Source of the DNA: an uncultured Candidatus Saccharibacteria bacterium
GTDB lineage: Bacteria > Patescibacteriota > Minisyncoccia > Phycocordibacterales > UBA9973
Length of the DNA stretch: 64,000 nucleotides
Direction of reading: 5' to 3'
Assembly (NCBI GenBank): GCA_964610995.1
Contig: CAZSWF010000001.1
Span: forward strand, 2,813 to 66,812
Part shown: positions 3,162 through 64,000 of the stretch, one piece after another
Layout: each line of letters opens with the position of its first letter
How positions within the stretch are numbered: position 1 is the stretch's first letter
Notes under the pieces: generated by a model
Seen by the model: the letters and a program-made list of their open reading frames with translations, nothing else
The model's database searches: none
Told to the model about the DNA's origin: nothing
Program-made: the position numbers and the translations under genes

Positions 3162-4544
3162 ATGGAAAAGATATCTGACATCCAAAAGAGAGTACAAGGA
3201 GGTGAACGCATTCTCGACATTGCTCGTGAGTACGAAGCCAAGGCTCGTGCAGACACACGAAATATATTTCGCGAAGTATTTGATGATATCGAAACTCAAG
3301 CCCAAGCTGCAGAAGAAATGCTTAAAAGTGGAAAGGCTACACCGATCACTGGCGTACCGATCGCGATCAAAGATAATATATTGTTTGCCGGACACGCAGC
3401 TGGTGCCTCATCGAAAATCCTCGAAGGATATACCGCAAGTTACGATGCTACTGTAGTTGCGAAGCTTCGCGCAGCAGGAGCTATCATCATTGGCCGCACC
3501 AACATGGACGAGTTTGCGATGGGTTCTAGTACCGAGAACTCTGCATATAGCGTGACGAAAAACCCGATCGATGAAACCAAGGTTCCTGGAGGATCATCAG
3601 GAGGATCGGCAGCTGCAGTTGCAGCAGGGCTCGCAGTCGTGTCGCTCGGGTCTGACACTGGAGGAAGTATCAGACAGCCAGCCGCATTTTGTGGAGTGGT
3701 CGGTATACTGCCGACCTATGGCACCGTGTCACGACATGGACTGATGGCGATGGGCTCGTCGCTCGATGTGATTGGTCCGTTTGCACACACGACGGCAGAT
3801 GCACAGATCGTGTACGATATTATCAATGGTAAAGATCAGTATGACAGTACGTCTGTAGAGAATGGTGTATCAAAACCTCTTACCAAGAAACTTGCTGTAC
3901 CCAAAGGAATATTTGATGCAGGAGGAGTAGATAGTGAAGTCAAGCACAACTTTGAGGAAATGATAGAGAAGCTCAAGGTCGAGGGGTATACCGTCGACGA
4001 AATAGATCTGCCTCATTTCAAAAATGCACTTGCGGTCTACTACATACTCATGCCGGCAGAAGTGTCGTCGAACCTCGCACGGTTTGATGGTGTGCGCTAT
4101 GGTCCGAGAGTCGAAGGTGGCAAGATCCAAGACCTGTACACCGCAACTCGAGGGACGCTGTTTGGGGAGGAAGTCCGTCGTCGCATACTGCTCGGTACGT
4201 ACGTGCTCTCACATGGCTACTACGATGCGTACTACAACAAAGCGATAGCGGTGCGTCATGTGATCAAGCGCGAGCTTGCAGATGCATTTACTACCTACGA
4301 TGCGATCCTCACTCCTACCACACCATCCCCTGCATTTGGTATCGGAGACAAGGTCGCGGATCCTATCGCAATGTACCTCTCTGATCTGTACACCGTGCCT
4401 GCCAACATTGCCCATGTACCGGCTATTTCTATACCCAGTGGTACGACGAGTGGTGGATTGCCGATAGGTATACAAGTCATCGGTGCACCCCATGCCGAAG
4501 GTACACTCTTTGCACTCGGTGAGACACTCGAGCGAATCCGCTAA
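3162..4544 (+). CDS. gatA: Glu-tRNA(Gln) amidotransferase subunit A (amidase family)
   Basis: Amidase signature GGSSGGSAAAVAAG, Ser-cisSer-Lys triad context; 460 aa. Confidence 0.95.
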   Translation: MEKISDIQKRVQGGERILDIAREYEAKARADTRNIFREVFDDIETQAQAAEEMLKSGKATPITGVPIAIKDNILFAGHAAGASSKILEGYTASYDATVVAKLRAAGAIIIGRTNMDEFAMGSSTENSAYSVTKNPIDETKVPGGSSGGSAAAVAAGLAVVSLGSDTGGSIRQPAAFCGVVGILPTYGTVSRHGLMAMGSSLDVIGPFAHTTADAQIVYDIINGKDQYDSTSVENGVSKPLTKKLAVPKGIFDAGGVDSEVKHNFEEMIEKLKVEGYTVDEIDLPHFKNALAVYYILMPAEVSSNLARFDGVRYGPRVEGGKIQDLYTATRGTLFGEEVRRRILLGTYVLSHGYYDAYYNKAIAVRHVIKRELADAFTTYDAILTPTTPSPAFGIGDKVADPIAMYLSDLYTVPANIAHVPAISIPSGTTSGGLPIGIQVIGAPHAEGTLFALGETLERIR

Positions 4545-4562
4545 ATATGCGATACTAGTACT

Positions 4563-5201
4563 ATGCAATCAAACGTACCAGAGCCCATATTTCTCAACGT
4601 TGAGTATATCTTTTCGTGGTTGTGGGGACACATCTTTGGGCCACTGTTTTCACAGAACACAATTGCGTTCTTGCAGTTCTTGCTCTCGATACTGATCATC
4701 ATTGGTATCACGATCATTTTGTATAGTCTGGTACGCATCCATGAAATGAAGCAAGACGATGAACGCAAGGCTGCAAAAGCCAAAAAAGAAGCAACCCCCG
4801 CAGCAGCTCCTGCGCAAAGTACACGCAGCGGTATGGATCTACCTGGTGCAACCAGTGCGATAAGTGAATCACAGACGATCCCTCGCAACGAAACATGGGA
4901 ACATATTCGCAGCAAGCTCCTCTCTGAGAGTCAGAGTGACTGGCGACTTGCTATCATAGAAGCCGATATATACCTGGATCGCGTGCTCGATACTCGTGGA
5001 GTACCAGGAGACACGCTGGGCGACAAACTCAAAAATGTATCTCCCGAAATACTGCCATCGGTGCAAATAGCCTGGGAAGCACACAAGGTGCGCAACCGTA
5101 TCGCGCACGACGGCGCAGACTTTGCACTCACGATGCCCGAAGCTCGGCGGGTATTGTCGTATTTTGAGATAGTATTTCGAGATTTGCGCGTCATCGAGTA
5201 A
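4563..5201 (+). CDS. Membrane-anchored protein with C-terminal HEPN-like domain (Rx4H motif: KVRNRIAHDG)
   Basis: N-terminal 2 TM helices, Lys/Ala-rich linker, C-terminal alpha-helical region with R-N-R-I-A-H, which resembles the HepT/HEPN Rx4-6H catalytic motif. Confidence 0.5.
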   Translation: MQSNVPEPIFLNVEYIFSWLWGHIFGPLFSQNTIAFLQFLLSILIIIGITIILYSLVRIHEMKQDDERKAAKAKKEATPAAAPAQSTRSGMDLPGATSAISESQTIPRNETWEHIRSKLLSESQSDWRLAIIEADIYLDRVLDTRGVPGDTLGDKLKNVSPEILPSVQIAWEAHKVRNRIAHDGADFALTMPEARRVLSYFEIVFRDLRVIE

Positions 5202-5251
5202 CTTGCGCTTGTCAGTGTCGTCTTGTATGATGTGCATCTGTACGCATATAT

Positions 5252-5325
5252 CGCGGGGTAGAGAAGAGGTATCTCGTAAGGCTCATAACCTTAAGACCCA
5301 CGTTCGATTCGTGGCCCCGCAACAA
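5252..5325 (+). tRNA. Initiator tRNA-fMet (anticodon CAT)
   Basis: CGCGGGG...CTCATAA...CCCCGCA with C1.A72 mismatch and three G-C pairs in the anticodon stem, typical of bacterial initiator tRNA. Confidence 0.8.
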
Positions 5326-5333
5326 TCAAGCAA

Positions 5334-5360
5334 AAATCCCTATATAACATAGGGATTTTT
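5334..5360. terminator. Bidirectional rho-independent terminator hairpin (aaaaATCCCTAT-ataac-ATAGGGATtttt)
   Basis: Perfect 8-bp stem flanked by an A-tract and a T-tract, between convergent tRNA genes. Confidence 0.55.
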
Positions 5361-5379
5361 GCTATTGTGGCCAGGATAA

Positions 5380-5456
5380 TGGCGCGAACGACGGGACTTG
5401 AACCCGCAACCTCCCGCGTGACAGGCGGGTGCTCTAACCAGTTGAGCTACGTCCGC
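5380..5456 (-). tRNA. tRNA-Asp (anticodon GTC)
   Basis: Reverse complement gives GCGGACGTAGCTCAACTGGTTAGAGC...CCTGTCACGCGGG...GGTTCAAGTCCCGTCGTTCGCGCCA with encoded CCA. Confidence 0.85.
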
Positions 5457-5482
5457 AAATTGTTAACAAAGCCTTTCGGCCG

Positions 5483-5558
5483 GGTGTCGACGGGTGGGCA
5501 CGATCCACCGACCTTAGCGTTATGAATGCTACGCTCTAACCAGCTGAGCTACGCCGAC
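5483..5558 (-). tRNA. tRNA with CAT anticodon (elongator Met or Ile2/lysidine) with atypical T-loop (ATCGTGC)
   Basis: Reverse complement: GTCGGCG-TA-GCTCAGCTGGTTAGAGC-G-TAGCA-TTCATAA-CGCTA-AGGTC-GGTGG-ATCGTGC-CCACC-CGTCGAC-A; cloverleaf folds but T54 is A and 31:39 is A.C. Confidence 0.55.
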
Positions 5559-5631
5559 AAGCTTGCAACGACAGGGCTCAAAAAATATAGCATATATCCA
5601 CAAAAATTCAACACATGGTATACTGTCCGTA

Positions 5632-6489
5632 ATGAAAAAGTATGGTCTAATCGTAGCACTCATAGTACTCCTAGCCCCCGTAGCGAGCTTTGCTGCACCC
5701 CTTGCTCCTGCGCCAACGCTCAGTGCAAAAGGAGTAGCGGTCTATGGGTGGAACAAAGGCGACACAGAGCCGACACCGCTGTATCTGAAAAATGAACATC
5801 GCCTCTATCCGATCGCAAGTTTGACCAAGCTCGTCACTGCCAAGGTCGCTGAAGAACTCTATGACAAAGAGACAATATTTACGATCTCTAAAAAGGCGGT
5901 ATCAACATATGGTGTCACCAACGGTATTCAGGTAGGTGCGCAGTTTACCCGGGACGACTTACTCAAAGCGCTTCTTGTTAACTCAAGTAATGATGCTGCC
6001 ACCGCTCTTATGGAGCGAGTCGGAACAAAAACGTTTCTTGAAAAAATGAATGACGTTCTACATACGAACAAATACACCGCAACATCGTTCGTCAACCCTT
6101 CTGGGCTTGATCCGGTAAATAAAAATACTAAGCCAAATCGTATGACGCCATACCATCTGACGAGACTACTCAACGATATTTATCAATCAGACCCACTACT
6201 TGCTGACCTCATGTCCAAAGATGTGGTTGAGATCACCAATCTCAAGACCAACACTATGGCTCTTTTGAAGCAGACCAACATTCTTTATCGAGATGAAGAT
6301 TACAAAGACAAGATCATCATGAGTAAAACAGGGCTGACCAACCTTGCAGGACAAAACGTTGCATTTATTTCTCCGGGAAATGATGAGTATGAGTACGTAT
6401 CGGTAGTTATCCTCGGCTCAAAGAGTAGGGCAGTAGACTCACGTAAACTCATCGACTGGATTGGCAGCGCACAGAACTTTGGCGGATAG
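5632..6489 (+). CDS. D-alanyl-D-alanine carboxypeptidase (peptidase S11 / PBP5-like), secreted
   Basis: Signal peptide MKKYGLIVALIVLLAPVASFA; SxxK (ASLTKL), SxN (SSN), KTG (SKTGLT) motifs. Start moved to 5632 because upstream ORF part overlaps the tRNA. Confidence 0.8.
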   Translation: MKKYGLIVALIVLLAPVASFAAPLAPAPTLSAKGVAVYGWNKGDTEPTPLYLKNEHRLYPIASLTKLVTAKVAEELYDKETIFTISKKAVSTYGVTNGIQVGAQFTRDDLLKALLVNSSNDAATALMERVGTKTFLEKMNDVLHTNKYTATSFVNPSGLDPVNKNTKPNRMTPYHLTRLLNDIYQSDPLLADLMSKDVVEITNLKTNTMALLKQTNILYRDEDYKDKIIMSKTGLTNLAGQNVAFISPGNDEYEYVSVVILGSKSRAVDSRKLIDWIGSAQNFGG

Positions 6490-10381: not shown

Positions 10382-11088
10382 TGAACGAAAAACGACTCAA
10401 AGAATTTTGGGATAAGGAATATAAGGATCCGGGGATGTTTGCGCTCTCGGATGAAGTCTCGACAGACCTTGTCAAATGTGTCCGATGGATGATGAAGGAA
10501 TACGGCAAGGATGTATTTCGTCCTGATGTCACCGTGCTTGATGCAGGTTGTGGCAACGGTCGCAACTTGCTGTGGCTCAACGACATGTTTCGAGTCTATG
10601 GGTACGGCTACGACATTTCAGGCGAAGCTATTGCTCAAGCGCAAAAGCAGGCAGACAAACAGCAGTGGGGCAGTAAGCTCACATTCGCAGTACGCTCACT
10701 TGATGAGCTTATTCCACTTGAAAATGAAAGTGTCGATCTCGTGATCGATGCAATGTCGTCCCACTTTCTCAAGAATGTAGAACGCGCACGATTTATCTCA
10801 GAAGTCGCTCGCGTGTTGAAGCCGCAGGGACTTCTCTTTTTCAAATCATTTTATGCAGAGCGTGACAGTCATACCAAAGAGCTCCTCGAGAAACATGGCG
10901 CAGGTGAGGAGAACGCGTACATTCACCCCAAGCTCAAAGTGTACGAGTACGTGTGGACGGATGCAGCACTTGCAGCATCATTTGATGAGCAATTTGTGTT
11001 GATGAAGAAAGAACTCTCAGGCAAGCACCATATCAAAGGCAAGCCCGCCAAGCGTCGCTCTGTCGTGTGTTATTTTGAGAAAAAGTAG
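10381..11088 (+). CDS. Class I SAM-dependent methyltransferase
   Basis: Motif I VLDAGCGNGRN; acidic residue after beta2; start ATGA-overlaps typA stop. Confidence 0.7.
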   Translation: MNEKRLKEFWDKEYKDPGMFALSDEVSTDLVKCVRWMMKEYGKDVFRPDVTVLDAGCGNGRNLLWLNDMFRVYGYGYDISGEAIAQAQKQADKQQWGSKLTFAVRSLDELIPLENESVDLVIDAMSSHFLKNVERARFISEVARVLKPQGLLFFKSFYAERDSHTKELLEKHGAGEENAYIHPKLKVYEYVWTDAALAASFDEQFVLMKKELSGKHHIKGKPAKRRSVVCYFEKK

Positions 11089-11109
11089 GGTAGGATAGTG
11101 GGCAATAAC

Positions 11110-11185
11110 GCCACCTTAGCTCAGCTGGTAGAGCAACGGTATCGTAAACCGTAGGTCCCGAGTTCGATCCTCGGAGGTGGCTCAG
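11110..11185 (+). tRNA. tRNA-Thr (anticodon CGT)
   Basis: GCCACCTTAGCTCAGCTGGTAGAGCAACGGTATCGTAAACCGTAGGTCCCGAGTTCGATCCTCGGAGGTGGCT. Confidence 0.85.
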
Positions 11186-11210
11186 GAAATCTGGGCTATA
11201 CTATAGAGAC

Positions 11211-12377
11211 ATGCCCGCACACCACACACCAGTAGCGCCTACCGAGAGCCGGGGACTGCTTATCTATGATGCAGATCGTGAGCTCGACACCACGCACCCA
11301 CTGTGGAACGAGATCATGCTCTACGCAGAGCGTCTCGAAGAAGTGCACGTATTTATTTTTATAAAAAAGTTTCCAAGCAAGGCGGTGCGTGTTGTACATC
11401 TTAGTGCCAACACATTTGTATACTATCTACCTGGTACCTGGATACTGTTTCGCCTCGACACGATACTGCCACTGATCAAGTACAACATGATCTGGAACAA
11501 GGTCTTTCGTCCAGATTTCGTTCTCAATCACTCGACACACAGTGGTGCGATCTTGGGTCTTGCACTTGCCAAGCGCTATCGCGTGCCGTACATACTTGCA
11601 ACACTCGGCGGCTTCTTAGAAATGCCAGTACTTTCCCGTGAGTTTCTGCTGCACTATATACTCGCGCGATGCGCGCGGCTTGTGATTGTACCAGGAGACA
11701 AAGTTGCGCACGATCTCTCGACACATATTGGAGTGCGTAGTACGCGGATTGCTGTAGTACCACCTGCAGTTGATCTCTCATTTTTGGGACAAAAGGTAGA
11801 AGCGGTGAGCTTTGCGAAAAAGTATCCATTTCACAACTTCTTTCTCATCACACAGACATCGATAGGACATCGACGAGACATTGTATTTCTCATGCGAGTG
11901 TTCAGGCGAGTACTGTCCAAGTATCCCAAAACAGCGCTCGTATTTGTAGTACCTCGATCGCAGGTGGATGCCGTCTCACACATTGTGGCTGGTCGTCGTA
12001 GTACGAGTGCATATGTCTATGCTCAAGGAGATGACATCACGCAAGTCATCGCAGGTGGACATGTATACCTCTCGACTTCAGAAACACAAGAAATGGCGAT
12101 CCCAGTAGTACGCGCACTATCGTTACATATACCCGTTGTGGCGACTTCGGTGGGCATTGCCAAGGACTTGTTTACAGGGACTCGATACGCTAGATGTATG
12201 GTGCCGGTGGGAGACGAGGATGCGTATACCAAGGCGATCATTGATTTGATAGAAAACCAGCAACTGCGTGACGAATATCGACTCAACACGACCACGCTGA
12301 TTGCGACATTTACCCCTCAGACGCCATCAGGCTATGTTGCTGCGGTAGTGGCACGTGTGGTACAAGAAAAGGCGTAG
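11211..12377 (+). CDS. Glycosyltransferase, GT4-like (GT-B fold)
   Basis: C-terminal motif [28 protein letters not shown] resembles the GT4 E-x7-E / PVVAT region; N-terminal start uncertain. Confidence 0.55.
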
Positions 12378-12378
12378 T

Positions 12379-13260
12379 ATGGACAAAGAAGCCCTCACAG
12401 CGCGTATTGCCGAGATAGAAGCTGCTATGATGGACGGCGCATTTTGGAATGACGTACCCCAGGCGCAAGCCCAGATCAAAGAGCTCCAAGACCTCAAAGA
12501 CAAGATGGAAGGCGTCGGCACATATGACAAAGGCAACGCTATTGTCACTATTTTCTCTGGTGCGGGAGGAGACGATGCCGAAGACTTCTCAGGTATGCTG
12601 CTGCGCATGTATACGCGATACGCTGAGCGCAAAGGCTGGGGCGTGTCGGTTATCTATAGTAGCGACAACGATCACGGTGGCTATCGCAACGTGAGTTTCG
12701 AGATCGCGGGCAAAGGCGCATTTGGCACGCTCAAGAACGAGTCGGGTGTGCATCGACTGGTGCGCATCTCACCATTTAACAGCGCCGCAAAACGCCAGAC
12801 ATCTTTTTCACTTGTCGAAGTCATCCCCAAGCTCGACAAGACAGATACACATGTGGTGATCCCTGACACTGATCTAGAAATATCATTTGCGCGTGCCGGT
12901 GGACCCGGCGGACAAAATGTAAACAAACGAGAAACTGCGGTACGCATGGTACACATACCTACGGGTCTCTCGGTGCATGTGACGAGTGAGCGCAGCCAAG
13001 AACAAAACAGAGACAAGGCACTCGAGCTCCTCAAAGGCAAACTATACAAACGCCAAGAAGAAGAACGTATAGCAAAAGAAAAAGGTCTGTATATATCCAA
13101 GACCACCGATATCGAGTGGGGCAACCAGATACGCTCCTACGTACTACATCCGTACAAAATGGTAAAAGATCATCGCACCGCTGTAGAGACGGGGAATGTA
13201 GACAAGGTGCTCGAAGATGGAAACCTCGATGACTTTATAGAAGCTGAGCGAAATTTGTAG
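12379..13260 (+). CDS. prfB: Peptide chain release factor 2 (short form, uninterrupted ORF)
   Basis: SPF tripeptide (RISPFNSA) and GGQ ([11 protein letters not shown]); 293 aa; no in-frame UGA/+1 frameshift site. Confidence 0.85.
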
Positions 13261-13290
13261 CTTTTGTAGCTATGGTATACTACATACCTC

Positions 13291-13971
13291 ATGATCAAGT
13301 TTGTAAACGTATCCAAAGTGTATCCCAACGGTGCAGTCGCGCTCGAAAATGTTAATTTGGAAATCGAGACAGGGGAGTTCGTCACACTCATCGGTCCCTC
13401 TGGTGCAGGCAAGACTACACTCACCAAATTGATTCTTGCCGAAGAAGAACCAAGCGAAGGCACAGTTTTGTTTGAAAATATTGATATCAACGCATTCAAT
13501 CGTGCAGACACTACCAAGCTACGTCGTCGTGTTGGGACCGTGTTTCAAGAGTTTCGTTTGCTCGGGAGCAAGACCGCGTACGAAAACATTGCATTTGCAA
13601 TGGAAGCCGCAGGCAAAAGTGATGCAGAGATCACCTCAGATGTGCCGCATGTGCTGCAGCTCGTCGATCTCCAAGACCGTATGTTCCATTTCCCCAACCA
13701 GCTCTCAGGAGGTGAGAAGCAGCGTCTTGCGATTGCGCGTGCGATCATCAACCAACCTGAAGTCTTGATTGCAGATGAGCCGACGGGTAACCTCGACGAA
13801 GCCAACACCAAAGAAGTCGTTCATATTTTGAAAAAAATCAATGATCTCGGCACAACAGTGATCCTCACTACACATGACCCGCTCCTCATCCATGCGGTTG
13901 GCAAACGACTCATTAGTATGGAAAAAGGTCGTGTGGTCGGCGACGAGATACGTAAACTCAAAGACAAATAA
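13291..13971 (+). CDS. ftsE: Cell division ATP-binding protein FtsE
   Basis: Walker [13 protein letters not shown] signature LSGGEKQR, Walker B LIADEPTG; adjacent ftsX. Confidence 0.9.
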
Positions 13972-55684: not shown

Positions 55685-57748
55685 ATGCAATTCAAACTCT
55701 CAGGAGAATACCAGCCGGCGGGTGACCAGCCAGCTGCGATCAAGGCGTTGGTCAAAGGGCTCAAGGACGGCAAGCAGATGCAAACACTGCTGGGAGCGAC
55801 CGCAACCGGTAAGACATTCACTATGGCCAACATCATAGAGAGCGTGCAGAAGCCGACACTCGTGATCGCGCACAACAAAACACTCGCCGCACAACTTGCT
55901 CAGGAGTTCAAAAGCTATTTCCCGGACAACGTCGTCCACTACTTCGTTTCGTACTACGACTATTACCAGCCCGAGGCGTACATGCCGATCACGGATACGT
56001 TTATTGAGAAAGACGCACAGATCAACAAAGAAATCGATCGACTTCGCCATGCCACAACGCAAGCATTGCTCACGCGCAAAGACGTGATCATTGTTGCGTC
56101 AGTCTCATGTATCTACGGTCTCGGTAGTCCTGTGGAGTATGAAAAGACAAATTTTAAAATAGAAAAAGGTATGAAGCTCTCGCGTACCCAAGCAATGGAG
56201 CGTCTCATCTCGATTCATTTTTCTCGAACCAATGCCGACCTTGAGAGCGGAACATTCAGAGCACTTGGCAACAAGATCGACATCATGCCCGTCTCTGACA
56301 CGATCATGTACCAGATCGACTTCACCGGCAACGTCGTGCAAAGTATCGTAAAAATAGATCCTGTATCGTCACGTATCATCACTGAGGACGAACCATTTGT
56401 ATACATTTTCCCAGCAAAGCACTTCATCACCAATGGCGAAGAAAAAGATCGCGCAGTGCGCGACATAGAGCACGAGCTCAAAGAGCAACTCAAACATTTT
56501 GAAGCAGAAGGCAAACTCCTCGAAGCAGAACGCATCAAGCGTCGCACGACGTACGACCTCGCGATGATCCGTGAGATGGGATACTGCTCCGGTATCGAAA
56601 ACTACTCTCGTCACATGTCGGGCAAAGCAGCGGGGGAGCCACCAGAAACGCTGCTTTCATACTTTCCTCATGACAAAGATGGCAAACCAGAATTTATGCT
56701 CTTTATCGATGAGTCTCATGTGACTATCCCACAGCTTGGTGGTATGTACGCAGGAGATGCATCGCGCAAGACGACACTTGTCGAGTTTGGCTTCAGACTT
56801 CCAAGCGCCAAAGACAACAGACCGCTCAAGTTCGAAGAATTTAAAGAGCGCATTGGTCAGACCATATTTGTTTCTGCTACACCGGGCAAATACGAAGCGG
56901 AGAACTCAGAGCAGATCGTGGAGCAGATCATCCGACCGACAGGACTCGTCGATCCGCTCGTAGAGGTGCGACCTATTTTAGAAAAGGGTGAGTACTTGGG
57001 CCAAGTCCAAGACTTCATCACAGAAGCCGAAAAAGAAATTGCGACCGGTGGACGCGTGCTCGCAACGACACTCACCAAACGTATGGCCGAAGACCTCTCT
57101 GCATATCTCAAGGATCGCAAGATCAAGGCTGAGTATTTGCACTCTGATATCAAGACGATTGAACGCATCCAGATCATCACCAAGTTTCGAAAAGGAGAGT
57201 TCGACATACTCGTCGGCGTGAACCTGCTACGCGAGGGCTTGGACATGCCCGAGGTGTCACTCATCGGTATTCTCGATGCGGACAAAGAAGGCTTCCTCCG
57301 TAGCGAAGTCTCACTCATCCAGACGATCGGTCGCGCAGCGCGCAATGCCAATGGTCGCGTCATACTGTATGCCGACCAGATGACTGGCTCGATGGAGCGC
57401 GCGATCGGCGAGACCACCCGTCGTCGTGAGAAACAGCTCGCGTACAACAAAGAGCACGGCATTACCCCCAAGACTATTAGCAAAGTGATCCGTGACATCA
57501 CCGAAGGTATGGAGAGTGATCATGCCAAGGCCGTCAACGCTGAGCTCGCACTCGACCTCGCGCTGTTTGCGCAGATCGAAAAGGACCAGAAGGGGCGCAA
57601 GACCAAAGGCAAAAACCCGATCGAGAAACTCATAAAAATAAAAGAAGCAGAAATGAAAGAAGCCGTGAAGCTCCTCGACTTCGAAACCGCAGCGATCCTC
57701 CGTGATGAGATCGGTGTGTTGCGGGAGAAGACGTATATCAATCCATAG
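55685..57748 (+). CDS. uvrB: Excinuclease ABC subunit B
   Basis: GATGTGKT Walker A, beta-hairpin, helicase motifs, C-terminal UVR domain (ILRDEIGVLRE). Confidence 0.97.
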   Translation: MQFKLSGEYQPAGDQPAAIKALVKGLKDGKQMQTLLGATATGKTFTMANIIESVQKPTLVIAHNKTLAAQLAQEFKSYFPDNVVHYFVSYYDYYQPEAYMPITDTFIEKDAQINKEIDRLRHATTQALLTRKDVIIVASVSCIYGLGSPVEYEKTNFKIEKGMKLSRTQAMERLISIHFSRTNADLESGTFRALGNKIDIMPVSDTIMYQIDFTGNVVQSIVKIDPVSSRIITEDEPFVYIFPAKHFITNGEEKDRAVRDIEHELKEQLKHFEAEGKLLEAERIKRRTTYDLAMIREMGYCSGIENYSRHMSGKAAGEPPETLLSYFPHDKDGKPEFMLFIDESHVTIPQLGGMYAGDASRKTTLVEFGFRLPSAKDNRPLKFEEFKERIGQTIFVSATPGKYEAENSEQIVEQIIRPTGLVDPLVEVRPILEKGEYLGQVQDFITEAEKEIATGGRVLATTLTKRMAEDLSAYLKDRKIKAEYLHSDIKTIERIQIITKFRKGEFDILVGVNLLREGLDMPEVSLIGILDADKEGFLRSEVSLIQTIGRAARNANGRVILYADQMTGSMERAIGETTRRREKQLAYNKEHGITPKTISKVIRDITEGMESDHAKAVNAELALDLALFAQIEKDQKGRKTKGKNPIEKLIKIKEAEMKEAVKLLDFETAAILRDEIGVLREKTYINP

Positions 57749-58661: not shown

Positions 58662-59171
58662 ATGCACCCAGTTATGTTCATACTTCTCTGTATCGGAGGA
58701 GTCGCCCTGCTTATGGTATACGGTATCAACCCTGCTATTGCGCGCCGTGATGCGCGAAAATCCCAGGAAGCCATCGATCGCAATATCGAATGGCAGCTTC
58801 TGGAAGGATTGGAGTATCCTCATCAGATTACTATCGCGCTTCTGGCGCAGTATTCTGACAAAGAAAAAATCGCCCGGATTATCTCTTCTCGGATACGAGA
58901 GTACCTCGCTATTGGTGCTCATCCTCAGCAGTTGGCAAGGTTGTTTGAAAATCTCGGCCTCTATGATGAAACCAAAAAAGGTGACACCAGAGAGATTGAG
59001 ATTGCTGCACTGATCAAGTACTACGTGCTCGAGGATGTTTCCCGCACTGATTTAAGTAATTACCGGAGCACACTTACAAGCGACAAGGTCAGAGGGCTGG
59101 AGAGGCTCAACATGAGCTTCATCATGAAGGCAAAGAAATCATCGTTCGTTTGGAGTCCGCTCGACAATTAG
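58662..59171 (+). CDS. Hypothetical membrane-anchored protein
   Basis: N-terminal TM, helical remainder; followed by strong terminator. Confidence 0.45.
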   Translation: MHPVMFILLCIGGVALLMVYGINPAIARRDARKSQEAIDRNIEWQLLEGLEYPHQITIALLAQYSDKEKIARIISSRIREYLAIGAHPQQLARLFENLGLYDETKKGDTREIEIAALIKYYVLEDVSRTDLSNYRSTLTSDKVRGLERLNMSFIMKAKKSSFVWSPLDN

Positions 59172-59196: not shown

Positions 59197-59229
59197 CCAG
59201 TGTGTCACACGACACACTGGTTTTTTTTG
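59197..59229 (+). terminator. Rho-independent terminator (CCAGTGTGTC-acac-GACACACTGG + T8)
   Basis: 10-bp perfect stem plus TTTTTTTT. Confidence 0.7.
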
Positions 59230-59273
59230 TATAAAAATTCCCCTGTATTGCTACAGGGGACTACTGCGTATGG

Positions 59274-59690
59274 TTACGCAGCTTTTTCTTTTGGATAGAT
59301 CATAGTGTCATTTTGCCAGTCGGTATGTACCGTTTCTTTTTGGAAATCGAGCCACACCATTGTTCTGGAAGGGAAGAAGGTGTTGGGTATCTGAGCTTTA
59401 CACAGAAATTTTGAAAGAGGGTATTCTGGTGCCCAGTCCACATCTAGCGTCAGTTGCCCCTTCCTTTCGGCATACGGTGTCGCGTACTTCCTCAATTCAT
59501 CTGAAAAGATCTTGATCTGCTCGTCCGTGATTGTTGTCGCAGTATGTACACTCATTTTAGCAAAGGTGGCGAGTATTGATCCAAACCCGTCCATCCCACC
59601 GTTTGCACGATCACCATATTCTGGCTTTTTCATAAAGGAAACGTACCACTCGATGGTGGCGTCGATCATGTTAGTTGCAGTCTGTGTCAT
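59274..59690 (-). CDS. Hypothetical cytoplasmic protein
   Basis: 138 aa ORF; no recognised motif. Confidence 0.45.
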   Translation of the reverse strand: MTQTATNMIDATIEWYVSFMKKPEYGDRANGGMDGFGSILATFAKMSVHTATTITDEQIKIFSDELRKYATPYAERKGQLTLDVDWAPEYPLSKFLCKAQIPNTFFPSRTMVWLDFQKETVHTDWQNDTMIYPKEKAA

Positions 59691-59792
59691 AAAATGTGCG
59701 TTTTTATTATTGTAACATATATCACTTATTTGTCAATTTGTACGGCGGGGTAGGGGTTTGTGAAAGAAGGGGAAGTGTGGGATAGTATCAAT

Positions 59793-60140
59793 ATGGAAAA
59801 CGCCAGCAGGTTTACTGCTCTCGTAGAGCGTATCAAAAAATTCTCAGCCGATCGTGATTGGTCTCAATTTCATGACCCAAAGAACCTTGCAATATCTTTG
59901 AATCTAGAAGCTTCAGAAGTGCTTGAGTTGTATCAGTGGACAAAAGACAATCAGCTTAAACCTGAGCGTGCCGGTAAAATAAATGACGAGCTTGCAGATG
60001 TCTTTTATTGGCTTGTTCTTCTTTCAAACTACTACAATATAGATCTTGTCGAAGCACTTGATAAAAAAATGGATCAAAATGAGCAAAAATATCCAGTAGA
60101 GAAAGCGAAAGGAAAATCAGATAAATATAATGAACTGTAA
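59793..60140 (+). CDS. MazG-like all-alpha NTP pyrophosphohydrolase domain protein
   Basis: EASEVLE (ExxE) and ELADVFYWL Mg-binding helices, DQNEQKYP C-terminal region; stop is 3 nt before next ATG. Confidence 0.7.
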   Translation: MENASRFTALVERIKKFSADRDWSQFHDPKNLAISLNLEASEVLELYQWTKDNQLKPERAGKINDELADVFYWLVLLSNYYNIDLVEALDKKMDQNEQKYPVEKAKGKSDKYNEL

Positions 60141-60143
60141 TGT

Positions 60144-62174
60144 ATGTCAAAAATACAATCGTTTAAATTTAATAGAGATAATTTTCAAAACATAAAAGCC
60201 TACCGTTTTGGGAAAAATTGGCCAGTTGTATATGTTGCAGAAAATGGAAAGGAGGCGTATATAGGTGAAACAGTAAATGTATTTCATAGAAGTCGTCAGC
60301 ACTATGAAAATCCTGAACGACAAAAACTAAATAAAATACATATTGTAACTGATGAAGAATTTAATAAATCAGCTGCTTTAGATATTGAGTCATGGCTTAT
60401 TCAATATATGTCGGCCGATCAAATATTTACTCTTCAAAATGGTAATAGTGGTCTTCAAAATCATAACTACTATGATCGTCCAAAATATAAAGCAAAATTT
60501 GAACTAATCTGGGAAAAGTTTAGAGAAATGGGTATTGCAAAAAATACCTTAGAAGATTTAAAAAATACAGACCTTTTTAAATATTCTCCCTATAAATCAT
60601 TAACTGAAGATCAGTTTATTGTTGCTCGGCAAATTTTTGAAGATTTAAAAAATAATCAAGCTCAAACGTATATTATAAATGGAAAACCAGGGACAGGTAA
60701 AACAATTCTTGCAACCTATCTTTTTAAATATTTAAAAGAACAAGATGAAACAAAACACCTAAAGATGGCCCTCGTAGTACCAATGACTTCTCTTCGAAAA
60801 ACTATTGGAAAAGTTTTTAGTAAAATAAAAGGATTGAGTAGTGGAATGGTAATTGGGCCAAATAAAGTAGCGCGAGGAGCTTATGATCTTGTAATCGTCG
60901 ATGAAGCACATCGTTTACAAAGGAGAAAAAATATTATGGGCATGGGTGCTTATGACAATATAAACAGATTTCTTAACTTGTCTGCAGAGTCGACGAATCT
61001 TGATTGGATAATGAAAACCTCAAAACATCAAATATTTTTTTATGATGAAAATCAAAGTATCAAACCTTCTGATGTTAGAAAGGAAGATTTTAATAATCTA
61101 AATGCAAAACATTATAAACTTACAACACAAATGCGCATAGGAGCTGGTGATGAGTATATTCATTTTATTGAGGATTTATTTGATCTTAAGGTTCCAGATA
61201 AAACAAGTTTTGAAAATTATGATTTTAAAGTCTATGAAAGCGTTGAAGGCATGGTTTCAGATATAAAACAAAAAGATAAAAAATATGGACTTTCTCGAGT
61301 AGTAGCGGGATATGCATGGCCTTGGCATACAAGAAATGGTGTTCAGCCTTATGATATTGAAATTGGAGGATATAAAGGCGTGTGGAATTCTACCGCGACA
61401 GATTGGGTAAATGCACCCAATGCCATAAACGAAGTTGGATGTATTCATACAGTCCAAGGGTATGACTTGAATTATGTAGGAGTAATTATTGGCCCCGAAT
61501 TTGGATACGACACAAAAAATAAAAAATTTTTTGTAGATAAAAAGAAATATCTCGATAGGAATGGTCGTGCCGGGGTACATGATCCGGTTGAGTTAGAACA
61601 ATATATTAAAAATATTTATAAAACAATTCTTACTCGGGGAATCCGAGGAACTTTTGTGTATATATGTGATGATAGTTTAAGATCTTATTTTAATAGTATT
61701 TTAAATAAAGGCGATAACTTAGAAAAAAGTTCAATTATTAAAACTTCGATCGAATCAATTTATTTTAATAAAGAAACAGTTAAATTACCTTTATTTGAGT
61801 CTGTTGGGTGTGGTGAGTTTATGATCGCAAATTCTCTCCCAGAAGATTTTTTGAAAGTAGATAAAAAATATGTTTCAACTGGATCAAAATATTTCGTACT
61901 TCGTGTTTCTGGAGATTCTATGAATCAGGTAGGTATAAACGATGGTGATTTAGTATTATGTCGTAAAGAATATAATCCACCGCAAGGAAAAAATGTAGTA
62001 GCCTTGGTAGGTGATGATGCTACTATCAAAGAGTATTGGAAAGAAGGAAAAACAGTAATCTTGAAACCAAAATCAAGTAATCCAAAACATCAAGTTATGG
62101 AATTTACAGAAGATGAACAGGTTTTTATTCAAGGTGTTGTTCTCCGAGTTTTAAAAGATGGTGATTATGAATAG
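60144..62174 (+). CDS. Three-domain fusion: N-terminal GIY-YIG nuclease, central DUF2075/SF1-helicase-like P-loop ATPase, C-terminal LexA/UmuD-like S24 peptidase domain
   Basis: VVYVAENGKEAYIGETVNVFHRSRQHY ... ESWL ... QNGN (GIY-YIG); GKPGTGKT Walker A, LVIVDEAHRL Walker B, IHTVQGYDLNYVGVIIG (SF1 motif VI-like); LPLFESVGCGEF linker with Cys-Gly, GDSM Ser nucleophile, ATIKEY Lys (S24). Very low G+C. Confidence 0.8.
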   Translation: MSKIQSFKFNRDNFQNIKAYRFGKNWPVVYVAENGKEAYIGETVNVFHRSRQHYENPERQKLNKIHIVTDEEFNKSAALDIESWLIQYMSADQIFTLQNGNSGLQNHNYYDRPKYKAKFELIWEKFREMGIAKNTLEDLKNTDLFKYSPYKSLTEDQFIVARQIFEDLKNNQAQTYIINGKPGTGKTILATYLFKYLKEQDETKHLKMALVVPMTSLRKTIGKVFSKIKGLSSGMVIGPNKVARGAYDLVIVDEAHRLQRRKNIMGMGAYDNINRFLNLSAESTNLDWIMKTSKHQIFFYDENQSIKPSDVRKEDFNNLNAKHYKLTTQMRIGAGDEYIHFIEDLFDLKVPDKTSFENYDFKVYESVEGMVSDIKQKDKKYGLSRVVAGYAWPWHTRNGVQPYDIEIGGYKGVWNSTATDWVNAPNAINEVGCIHTVQGYDLNYVGVIIGPEFGYDTKNKKFFVDKKKYLDRNGRAGVHDPVELEQYIKNIYKTILTRGIRGTFVYICDDSLRSYFNSILNKGDNLEKSSIIKTSIESIYFNKETVKLPLFESVGCGEFMIANSLPEDFLKVDKKYVSTGSKYFVLRVSGDSMNQVGINDGDLVLCRKEYNPPQGKNVVALVGDDATIKEYWKEGKTVILKPKSSNPKHQVMEFTEDEQVFIQGVVLRVLKDGDYE

Positions 62175-62185
62175 ATAATTTCTTC

Positions 62186-62600: not shown

Positions 62601-62679
62601 GAGTATTTTTAAAGAACAATACCTTTTATTTAGTTTTTGTCAATTTGGATAGTGATAGTATTGAGCGTATACTTTAAAT

Positions 62680-63659: not shown

Positions 63660-64000
63660 ATGCAAAAGAAATTGCGAGAAAAAACAGGACACCACCCCGA
63701 AGGCATGATCGTCGTAAAAGGCGCGCGTACTCACAACTTGAAAAATATTGATGTGGAAATGCCACGCGGCAAAATGATCGCGATCACCGGTATGTCGGGG
63801 AGCGGCAAGAGCTCGCTCGCATTTGATACGATATTTGCAGAAGGACAGCGTCGCTACGTGGAGTCGCTCTCAAGCTATGCGCGACAGTTCCTAAACCAAA
63901 TGCCTAAACCTGATGTCGATGAAATATCAGGCCTCTCGCCAGCTATCTCGATCGATCAAAAGTCTCGCTCCAACAATCCGCGCTCGACGGTTGCAACAAT
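63660..64000 (+). CDS. uvrA: Excinuclease ABC subunit A, 5' partial (runs off window)
   Basis: [63 protein letters not shown] canonical UvrA N-terminus; not in ORF track because no stop in window. Confidence 0.9.

Follow-up and report, generated by a model that had tools for sequence, protein, structure and literature searches.

The stretch of DNA considered here, hereafter the window, comprises 64,000 nucleotides (nt) of a contig from an uncultured Candidatus Saccharibacteria bacterium (CAZSWF010000001.1, assembly GCA_964610995.1) and carries a cassette of two adjacent genes between uvrB and uvrA (Table 1). The larger gene, taken from the list of open reading frames (ORFs) of this 64-kb window, encodes a protein of 676 amino acids (aa) whose translation opens MSKIQSFKFNRDNFQNIKAYRFGKNWPVVYVAENGKEAYIGETVNVFHRSRQHYENPERQKLNKIHIVTDEEFNKSAALDIESWLIQYMSADQIFTLQNGN. 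In this protein a predicted GIY-YIG nuclease, a superfamily 1 (SF1) helicase of the DUF2075/Schlafen type and an S24 domain resembling LexA follow one another on a single chain, while the smaller gene in front of it encodes a putative pyrophosphatase. On the 676-aa protein Pfam returns SLFN-g3_helicase (E 4.4e-68) and Peptidase_S24 (E 2.5e-23) and leaves GIY-YIG below threshold. A homologue search yielded 7919 relatives, and the full-length AlphaFold model has a predicted local distance difference test score (pLDDT) of 83 and a predicted template modeling score (pTM) of 0.70. In each of the three domains the catalytic residues do not vary among homologues, full-length conservation being measured here over 74 full-length sequences at 60-94% identity.

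Table 1. Features of the cassette and its flanks, in window coordinates.
Feature	Position (nt)	Strand	Residues	Evidence or remark
Whole gene: GIY-YIG nuclease, DUF2075/Schlafen-type SF1 helicase, S24 LexA-like autopeptidase	60144..62174	+	1-676	ORF list, Pfam, full-length AlphaFold model
N-terminal extension: one strand and one helix against the GIY-YIG core	60144..60221	+	1-26	AlphaFold model, strand 3-8 and helix 11-19, pLDDT about 91
GIY-YIG catalytic core (predicted)	60222..60458	+	27-105	Invariant residues, Pfam, PDB profile, hhalign, Foldseek
Helical connector, nuclease to motor	60459..60662	+	106-173	Helices 112-128, 136-139 and 143-146 in AlphaFold models
DUF2075/Schlafen group 3 SF1 helicase domain	60663..61670	+	174-509	PF09848, invariant motifs, Foldseek
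Disordered linker before the S24 domain	61710..61769	+	523-542	pLDDT <50 in full-length model; homologue consensus unconserved
S24 LexA/UmuD-like self-cleaving domain (predicted)	61788..62171	+	549-676	PF00717, LexA structures, invariant residues, Foldseek
Partner gene: MazG-like/DCTPP1-like all-alpha deoxynucleoside triphosphate (dNTP) pyrophosphatase	59760..60140	+		PF12643, DCTPP1 match, PHROG
Low-GC island (cassette)	~59750-62180			31-38% GC, sharply bounded
uvrB	55685-57748			Upstream side of cassette
uvrA, N-terminus	from near 63660			Downstream side of cassette; runs off the window end

An earlier note on this DNA had read a GIY...YIG...R...H...E...N constellation in the interval 60144-60480, that is in codons 1-112, which span the core of the GIY-YIG domain, and this reading is borne out. 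The motif takes the form VVY30-x8-Y39IG-x7-R49-x3-H53 ... E82 ... N99, and each of the strings that had been quoted occurs in the translated ORF, namely VVYV (aa 28-31, nt 60225-60236), AYIGETVNVFHRSRQHY (aa 38-54, nt 60255-60305), LDIESWL (aa 79-85, with E82 at nt 60387-60389) and QNGN (aa 98-101, with N99 at nt 60438-60440). The spacer from VVYV to AYIG had been given as nine residues and is in fact of six (AENGKE); the offset from Tyr30 to Tyr39 is nine, with eight residues between them, which is 1-2 shorter than in UvrC and I-TevI. The pattern exceeds chance: a regular expression for it matches once in the six-frame translation of the window, whereas 100 composition-preserving block shuffles gave on average 0.0 matches to its first half and 0.04 to the full constellation. 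Among the full-length homologues Y30, Y39, G41, R49, H53, E82 and N99 are invariant, the six catalytic positions included. A search with residues 1-151 gave 100 homologues, and in the resulting alignment of 101 N-terminal sequences, which reaches down to about 40% identity, conservation is at least 90% at Y30, Y39, G41, R49, H53, N99 and N101 and complete at E82.

The subfamily to which the GIY-YIG core belongs is divergent, and the generic Pfam model barely picks it up. Set against the PF01541 gathering cut-off of 22.6 bits, the window protein scores 14.5 bits in full (E 0.045) and 17.0 bits with residues 1-151 (E 0.0075), its match being limited to profile positions 10-38. Its homologues, however, are recognized: 96 of the 101 aligned N-terminal sequences match PF01541 with E<=0.01 (the best being 2.3e-8), and homologues that share 42-74% identity with the window domain exceed the cut-off with 25-35 bits, in alignments that span positions 3-78 of 78 and take in the Glu and Asn motifs (26.4 bits over positions 9-76 for P0122, which is 74% identical). 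The profile check put forward in the earlier note therefore comes out negative for the window protein alone and positive for its family. A direct sequence search of the PDB with residues 1-151 gave no match at E<=10. The family profile gave eight, including T4 endonuclease II (2wsh; E 0.013), I-TevI (1mk0; E 0.03), UvrC (1ycz; E 0.4) and BH0048 (E 0.9); others were a polymerase chain (7sr6; E 0.1) and the Dda helicase (E 0.12), the latter because the alignment included a P-loop tail. With hhalign, Y30, Y39, R49 and H53 fall on Y6, Y17, R27 and H31 of I-TevI, in an alignment of the first half of the domain only (47 columns, probability 24%, E 8e-4).

The N-terminal AlphaFold model built on the family alignment (pLDDT 86, pTM 0.83) consists of strand 28-33, strand 37-43, helix 46-55, strand 64-69 and helix 75-92, with the extra strand and helix in front. 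This is the beta-beta-alpha-beta-alpha order of the GIY-YIG topology, a three-stranded antiparallel sheet flanked by helices, and the catalytic residues are placed with VVY30 and Y39IG on the hairpin, R49 and H53 on a helix, E82 on helix 75-92 and N99 and N101 in a loop. Foldseek against solved structures found the UvrC GIY-YIG domain (1ycz; probability 0.97, target-normalized TM-score 0.61) and the GIY-YIG-fold N-terminal domain of plant GRXS16 (2lwf), the two solved matches that combine the highest probability with the highest target TM-score. The positions of the Thermotoga maritima UvrC mutants Y19F, Y29F, Y43F and N88A correspond by spacing to Y30, Y39, H53 and N99. The earlier note would have abandoned the assignment given both a profile score below threshold and a predicted fold of another kind; the window protein alone gives the former, and the predicted fold is that of GIY-YIG.

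Several results weigh against the assignment of an active GIY-YIG nuclease, and with it against the wider reading of the protein. Both PF01541 scores of the window protein lie below the cut-off, the PDB profile E-values are weak (0.013 to 0.9), and the hairpin from GIY to YIG is shortened. The Foldseek E-values of the N-terminal model all exceed 0.01, and the match ranked first by E-value is a chain of RsmI, which is unrelated and has a poor TM-score. Finally, no activity has been demonstrated in the searchable literature for any member of the GIY-YIG-DUF2075 subfamily. Degenerate GIY-YIG relics are seen in other proteins, and the sub-threshold score, the short hairpin and the want of biochemical data in the literature searched would all suit a domain that has become a non-catalytic DNA-binding or structural module, leaving the protein an ATPase/helicase or a sensor only. 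Against such a relic stands the conservation of Y30, Y39, R49, H53, E82 and N99 in both alignments, which would not be expected of one, as well as the homologues that exceed the Pfam threshold, and we think this alternative very unlikely. The GIY-YIG identity holds because the family evidence outweighs the sub-threshold score of a single member. We thus have high confidence that residues ~27-105, in which the catalytic residues are complete, form a genuine and probably active GIY-YIG domain.

The extension ahead of the core has conserved F9, F22, G23 and W26 in the homologue alignments, and the family profile aligns it weakly with that of T4 endonuclease II (E 0.013 for the whole match). Behind the core, the helical connector holds a conserved DLFKYSPYK motif (aa 143-151), with L139, N141, D143, L144, F145, Y147, S148, P149, Y150 and K151 invariant. 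The motor itself matches PF09848 with 230.6 bits (cut-off 24) over profile positions 2-354 of 354 and shows a Walker A motif (G180-K-P-G-T-G-K186), a Walker B motif (D253-E-A-H256), TVQG (436-439) and R498; G180, G183, T184, K186, D253, E254, H256, Q438, G439 and the arginine finger R498 are invariant. Foldseek neighbors of the full-length model include RecD2, RecD, Upf1, nsp13 and SLFN11 (E 1e-9 to 1e-11), and SLFN14 is also a structural neighbor of the motor. What had been called a helicase-like motor can accordingly be named a DUF2075/Schlafen group 3 SF1 ATPase whose Walker A, DEAH and arginine-finger residues are invariant. Given the evidence for an intact nuclease and a motor, the translocating endonuclease that the earlier note had predicted is a reasonable molecular prediction, well supported by homology.

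The S24 domain, on which the earlier note was silent, scores 82.4 bits on PF00717 (cut-off 23.3) and matches LexA structures (Escherichia coli LexA) at E 6e-15 with 33-34% identity, and Foldseek superimposes it on the LexA C-terminal domain with a TM-score of 0.86. The putative cleavage site C556-G557 (nt 61809-61814) aligns with LexA A84-G85 (VGCGE with VAAGE), the nucleophile S592 within GDSM with LexA S119, and the general base K629 with LexA K156; the spacings between them are 35 and 37 residues, against 34 and 37 in LexA. C556, G557, G590, D591, S592, M593 and K629 are all invariant. The domain thus shares the Ser/Lys dyad of LexA, UmuD and lambda CI with LexA-like spacing, and its Cys-Gly scissile bond is the UmuD version of the site (UmuD Cys24-Gly25). 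By its residues the domain is catalytically intact, and self-cleavage is predicted. Its cargo would be a predicted nuclease-helicase of 556 residues, in place of a repressor's DNA-binding domain or a subunit of a polymerase.

The full three-domain architecture dominates in Patescibacteria, in metagenome-assembled genomes (MAGs) of Paceibacteria, Nomurabacteria and Saccharibacteria. Proteins of the same build, 38-41% identical, come from Bacteroidota (Marivirga, Indibacter, Mariniflexile, Flavobacteriales) and from a gammaproteobacterial MAG. A shorter form that lacks S24 occurs in Erysipelotrichaceae, Flavobacteriia, Saccharibacteria and the megaplasmids of the Bacillus cereus group. An exhaustive search with the N-terminal 135 residues gave 596 clusters at 50% identity; among the best 150 of these the domain lies at or very near the N-terminus, with one exception (P0374), and protein lengths group near 550-600 aa or 680-780 aa. 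Most GIY-YIG-DUF2075 members are 550-600 aa long and end after the motor, and carriers of S24 are a minority. Of nine sampled distant relatives of 730-776 aa, eight have the tail.

The partner ORF encodes at most 126 aa (its start may instead lie at 59775 or 59793) and its stop is 3 nt ahead of the ATG of the nuclease-helicase gene. It matches PF12643 (3e-15, 56.6 bits, cut-off 27), a PHROG pyrophosphatase (7e-17) and mouse/human dCTP pyrophosphatase 1, also known as RS21-C6 or DCTPP1 (E 3e-21), and in the last alignment the ExxE...ExxD metal motifs pair up, EASE with EVGE and DELAD with EELSD. Of 47 related loci (L001-L045, L047 and L048), 46 have a homologue of this gene as the next one upstream on the same strand, L041 alone lacking it. 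These loci belong to Patescibacteria, Bacteroidota, Bacillota (including Erysipelotrichaceae), a gammaproteobacterial MAG and the Bacillus thuringiensis plasmid pIS56-233, where the partner is annotated 'nucleotide pyrophosphohydrolase'. No other neighbor is conserved among the related loci, and with its near-constant partner the gene thus makes up a two-gene operon. A terminator scan of the + strand found no terminator-like site between the two genes, and promoter-like sites on the + strand of the cassette are at chance level (15 found, 13.8 expected). The same pair, 39% identical and lacking S24, also lies unannotated at positions 3688-5689 of a contig from human feces labeled 'Bacteriophage sp.' (L048, MT836409.1; phage label unverified), so phages or phage-like elements may be a further vehicle for the cassette.

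The two genes form a compositionally foreign island of 2.4 kb. Flanking DNA has about 50% GC, to which the downstream DUF167 and cupin genes return, and GC content at third codon positions (GC3) is 0.19 in the fusion gene and 0.33 in its partner, compared with 0.60 in uvrB. This low-GC island indicates recent horizontal acquisition. A search for repeats at the island ends found no direct or inverted repeats flanking the cassette and no target duplication. The foreign composition raises the prospect of a selfish homing-type endonuclease, in the style of I-TevI or free-standing GIY-YIG enzymes, whose own mobility would account for a low-GC insert in the uvrB-uvrA interval; GIY-YIG domains are typical of homing endonucleases (PMC1564403), and I-TevI and T4 endonuclease II are among the best PDB sequence matches. 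However, NUMOD and helix-turn-helix (HTH) DNA-binding modules are absent, as is any intron or intein context; the domain always shares its chain with an SF1 motor of 340 residues and is paired with a pyrophosphatase gene, and insertion sites vary between genomes. Lacking DNA-binding modules, flanking repeats and a duplicated target, the homing reading was rejected, and we regard it as extremely improbable. A GIY-YIG domain heading a single-chain nuclease-helicase with an S24 tail is the best explanation of the data, and one that we hold to be highly probable.

That a GIY-YIG domain sits on a helicase is correct but not new, as annotation pipelines already label it and the fusion is already in print. 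The Joint Genome Institute (JGI) annotates homologue P0005 as 'DUF2075 family protein/predicted GIY-YIG superfamily endonuclease', and the fusion is mentioned in one sentence of a published paper (PMC6765204), while a 2006 phylogenomic survey of GIY-YIG proteins does not include this subfamily. Bacterial GIY-YIG-DUF2075 fusions such as WP_000947885.1 of B. thuringiensis pIS56-233, which is 34% identical to the window protein, share with it the N-terminal GIY-YIG subfamily, the DUF2075 motor and the upstream pyrophosphatase; most end after the motor, whereas the window protein adds a C-terminal S24 domain. The N-terminal domain of UvrC/Cho, I-TevI and T4 endonuclease II have the same fold and the same Y-Y-R-H/Y-E-N constellation at about 20% identity, the window domain differing in its shorter hairpin (by 1-2 residues) and its extra N-terminal strand and helix. 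UvrC joins this domain to Endo V and helix-hairpin-helix (HhH) domains and I-TevI to NUMOD/HTH modules, whereas the window protein pairs it with an SF1 motor. Eukaryotic Schlafen group 3 proteins (SLFN11, SLFN5, SLFN14) belong to the same PF09848 family, likewise place a nuclease before a C-terminal SF1 motor and are linked to the response to DNA damage and replication stress. Their nuclease, however, adopts not the GIY-YIG fold but that of the Slfn core, an RNase whose substrate is tRNA; they have no S24 domain, and their sequence relationship to the window protein is confined to the motor.

In Nhi of Staphylococcus epidermidis, the Nhi-like proteins and AbiO an N-terminal nuclease and a DUF2075 helicase likewise form one polypeptide. 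Nhi and Nhi-like proteins are experimentally validated defense proteins of this build (bioRxiv 10.1101/2022.05.11.491447; PMC11084316), 'Nhi-like' being a name given by architecture alone (bioRxiv 10.1101/2022.05.11.491447), and Nhi degrades phage replication intermediates (PMC11084316). The PADLOC model for Nhi (PDLC02372) matches the window protein at 5e-17, with query residues 140-368 on model positions 171-364 of 470, and that for AbiO at 2e-15 over the motor part only; in the Bacillus and Marivirga homologues the Nhi match similarly excludes the nuclease part. The nuclease region of Nhi does not align with the GIY-YIG head, and neither an S24 tail nor a pyrophosphatase partner is described for Nhi, whereas the window protein has both. 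Membership of Nhi or AbiO at the sequence level was therefore rejected, since only the motor aligns, while the architecture is shared.

Read together, these features suggest how the protein may work. The SF1 motor would load on single-stranded DNA (ssDNA) or at a fork and translocate at the expense of ATP, and the GIY-YIG site would cut the DNA that the motor feeds to it. By analogy with UvrC and I-TevI, E82 would hold a single metal ion, R49 and H53 would stabilize the transition state, Y30 and Y39 would activate water as general base, and N99 would have a structural part. The S24 domain, tethered by the disordered linker of 20 residues, is predicted to cut itself at Cys556-Gly557 using Ser592 and Lys629, most likely upon docking on RecA-ssDNA filaments as in LexA, UmuD and lambda CI, and cleavage would split the 556-residue nuclease-helicase from a dimerizing or inhibitory tail. 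Self-cleavage on RecA filaments would couple nuclease action to DNA damage or to replicating foreign DNA. The pyrophosphatase partner, for its part, may remove dCTP or a non-canonical dNTP.

As to biological role, we favor a mobile Nhi-like defense module over a damage response, with confidence that is about even. Defense is preferred because the cassette is mobile, is plasmid-borne in Bacillus and frequently has toxin-antitoxin or abortive infection (Abi) neighbors, because it has the nuclease plus DUF2075 architecture of Nhi and Nhi-like proteins, and because the nuclease domain matches the PADLOC defense candidate PDC-S14. Toxin-antitoxin, Abi or other defense-type genes lie within a few kb in nine of 12 Patescibacteria contexts, a count that carries no background control. 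These neighbors are PIN_12; Fic/RhuM; an M78 plus HTH pair with a Multi_ubiq/ThiF/BubE cluster; RelB/ParE and PemK; AbiEii; Abi_alpha plus NYN; HTH-Panacea; DUF3800; and PemK. On Bacillus cereus-group plasmids the cassette stands beside a zeta toxin and an HNH endonuclease. Besides the uncontrolled count, other results tell against a defensive role: the loci of Bacteroidota, Erysipelotrichaceae and the gammaproteobacterial MAG have ordinary housekeeping neighbors, and several loci have DNA-repair neighbors that fit repair as well as defense. As for the mechanism, S24 cleavage can be read from sequence either way, as activation or as inactivation, triggered by RecA* or otherwise.

A role in the response to DNA damage or in repair is possible but rather less probable in our estimation. 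It would leave the molecular function, a GIY-YIG nuclease with a motor, unchanged and differ in biological role only, the cassette being an SOS-type module in which the partner sanitizes the dNTP pool, the GIY-YIG-helicase incises or processes damaged or stalled DNA in the manner of UvrC/Cho and the LexA-like tail makes its activity or lifetime depend on RecA filaments that arise upon damage. DNA-repair genes lie near the cassette in four of the 12 contexts: uvrB and uvrA on either side of it in the window, Pyr_excise (L049), Ogg and Pur_DNA_glyco (L050) and DNA_alkylation (L004), the last three contexts within a few kb. The arrangement uvrB-cassette-uvrA recurs in a contig with a 94%-identical protein. 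In small genomes such repair neighbors may arise by coincidence, or they may hint at a response to damage. S24 domains belong to the classic SOS machinery, and the partner is homologous to the DCTPP1-type enzymes, which are 'house-cleaning' pyrophosphatases. Schlafen-11, a structural neighbor of the motor, acts in the replication-stress response (PMC6765204). However, the repair neighbors vary by locus, the pyrophosphatase gene being the one conserved neighbor, and toxin-antitoxin and Abi neighbors outnumber them by nine to four of 12. The foreign composition (GC3 0.19 against 0.60) and the carriage on Bacillus cereus-group plasmids beside toxin and endonuclease genes also speak against a repair role, as does the lack of an S24 tail in most family members.

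A more specific proposal, which we consider doubtful, is that the pair forms an undescribed two-gene immune or genome-surveillance module, in which, within the branch that bears S24, RecA-ssDNA filaments would act as the alarm, the S24 cut at Cys556-Gly557 would free the nuclease-helicase and the partner would destroy dCTP or phage-specific modified dCTP. If this were true, the module would be a functional mirror of phage T4, which pairs a dCTPase with the GIY-YIG enzyme endonuclease II, and a bacterial counterpart of the Schlafen-11 replication-stress response. It would also hold the first LexA-type autoproteolysis that frees an enzyme rather than a repressor or a polymerase subunit.

More valuable than the GIY-YIG motif are two features that the finding in the earlier note did not contain, the S24 tail and the near-invariable DCTPP1-like partner. 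The nuclease-helicase family is almost invariably paired with a DCTPP1-like gene across at least four phyla and on plasmids, and a sizeable branch of it, the window gene included, ends in what its residues indicate to be a catalytically intact self-cleaving domain of the LexA/UmuD type. We found no description of the S24-tailed form or of an obligatory DCTPP1-like partner in a searchable literature that is itself incomplete: searches gave no papers for DUF2075 with MazG, incidental co-occurrence only for DUF2075 with S24, irrelevant material for Schlafen with LexA, and PMC6765204 alone for GIY-YIG with Schlafen. If the S24 tail is a switch triggered by RecA filaments, it would offer a simple example of SOS-type proteolysis gating a nuclease and a mechanistic tie between bacterial DUF2075 proteins and the part that eukaryotic Schlafens play under replication stress. 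Patescibacteria, a group whose defense and repair repertoires are poorly known, carry the module especially often.

Some further observations concern the surroundings of the cassette. A 41-nt imperfect inverted repeat (60296-60336 and 62624-62664, 78% complementary) has one arm within the sequence that encodes the GIY-YIG domain, while its second arm lies about 450 nt past the gene; it is probably a chance product of AT-rich DNA. Between the TspO/DoxX genes and the cassette lie two ORFs with no significant family match, 58662-59171 (+ strand, 169 aa) and 59274-59690 (- strand, 138 aa), the latter with an 11/12 match to a sigma-70-like promoter at 59736-59709, and convergent terminator-like hairpins occupy 59197-59281. 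In the closely related contig L001 the same interval holds a different gene (207 aa, minus strand), so the upstream spacer is variable. In contig L049 the cassette homologue is followed at 11078-13850 by the M78 peptidase and HTH pair and then by the Multi_ubiq, ThiF and BubE genes, a cluster in a Patescibacteria contig that looks like a bacterial ubiquitination-like (Bub-type) defense cluster.

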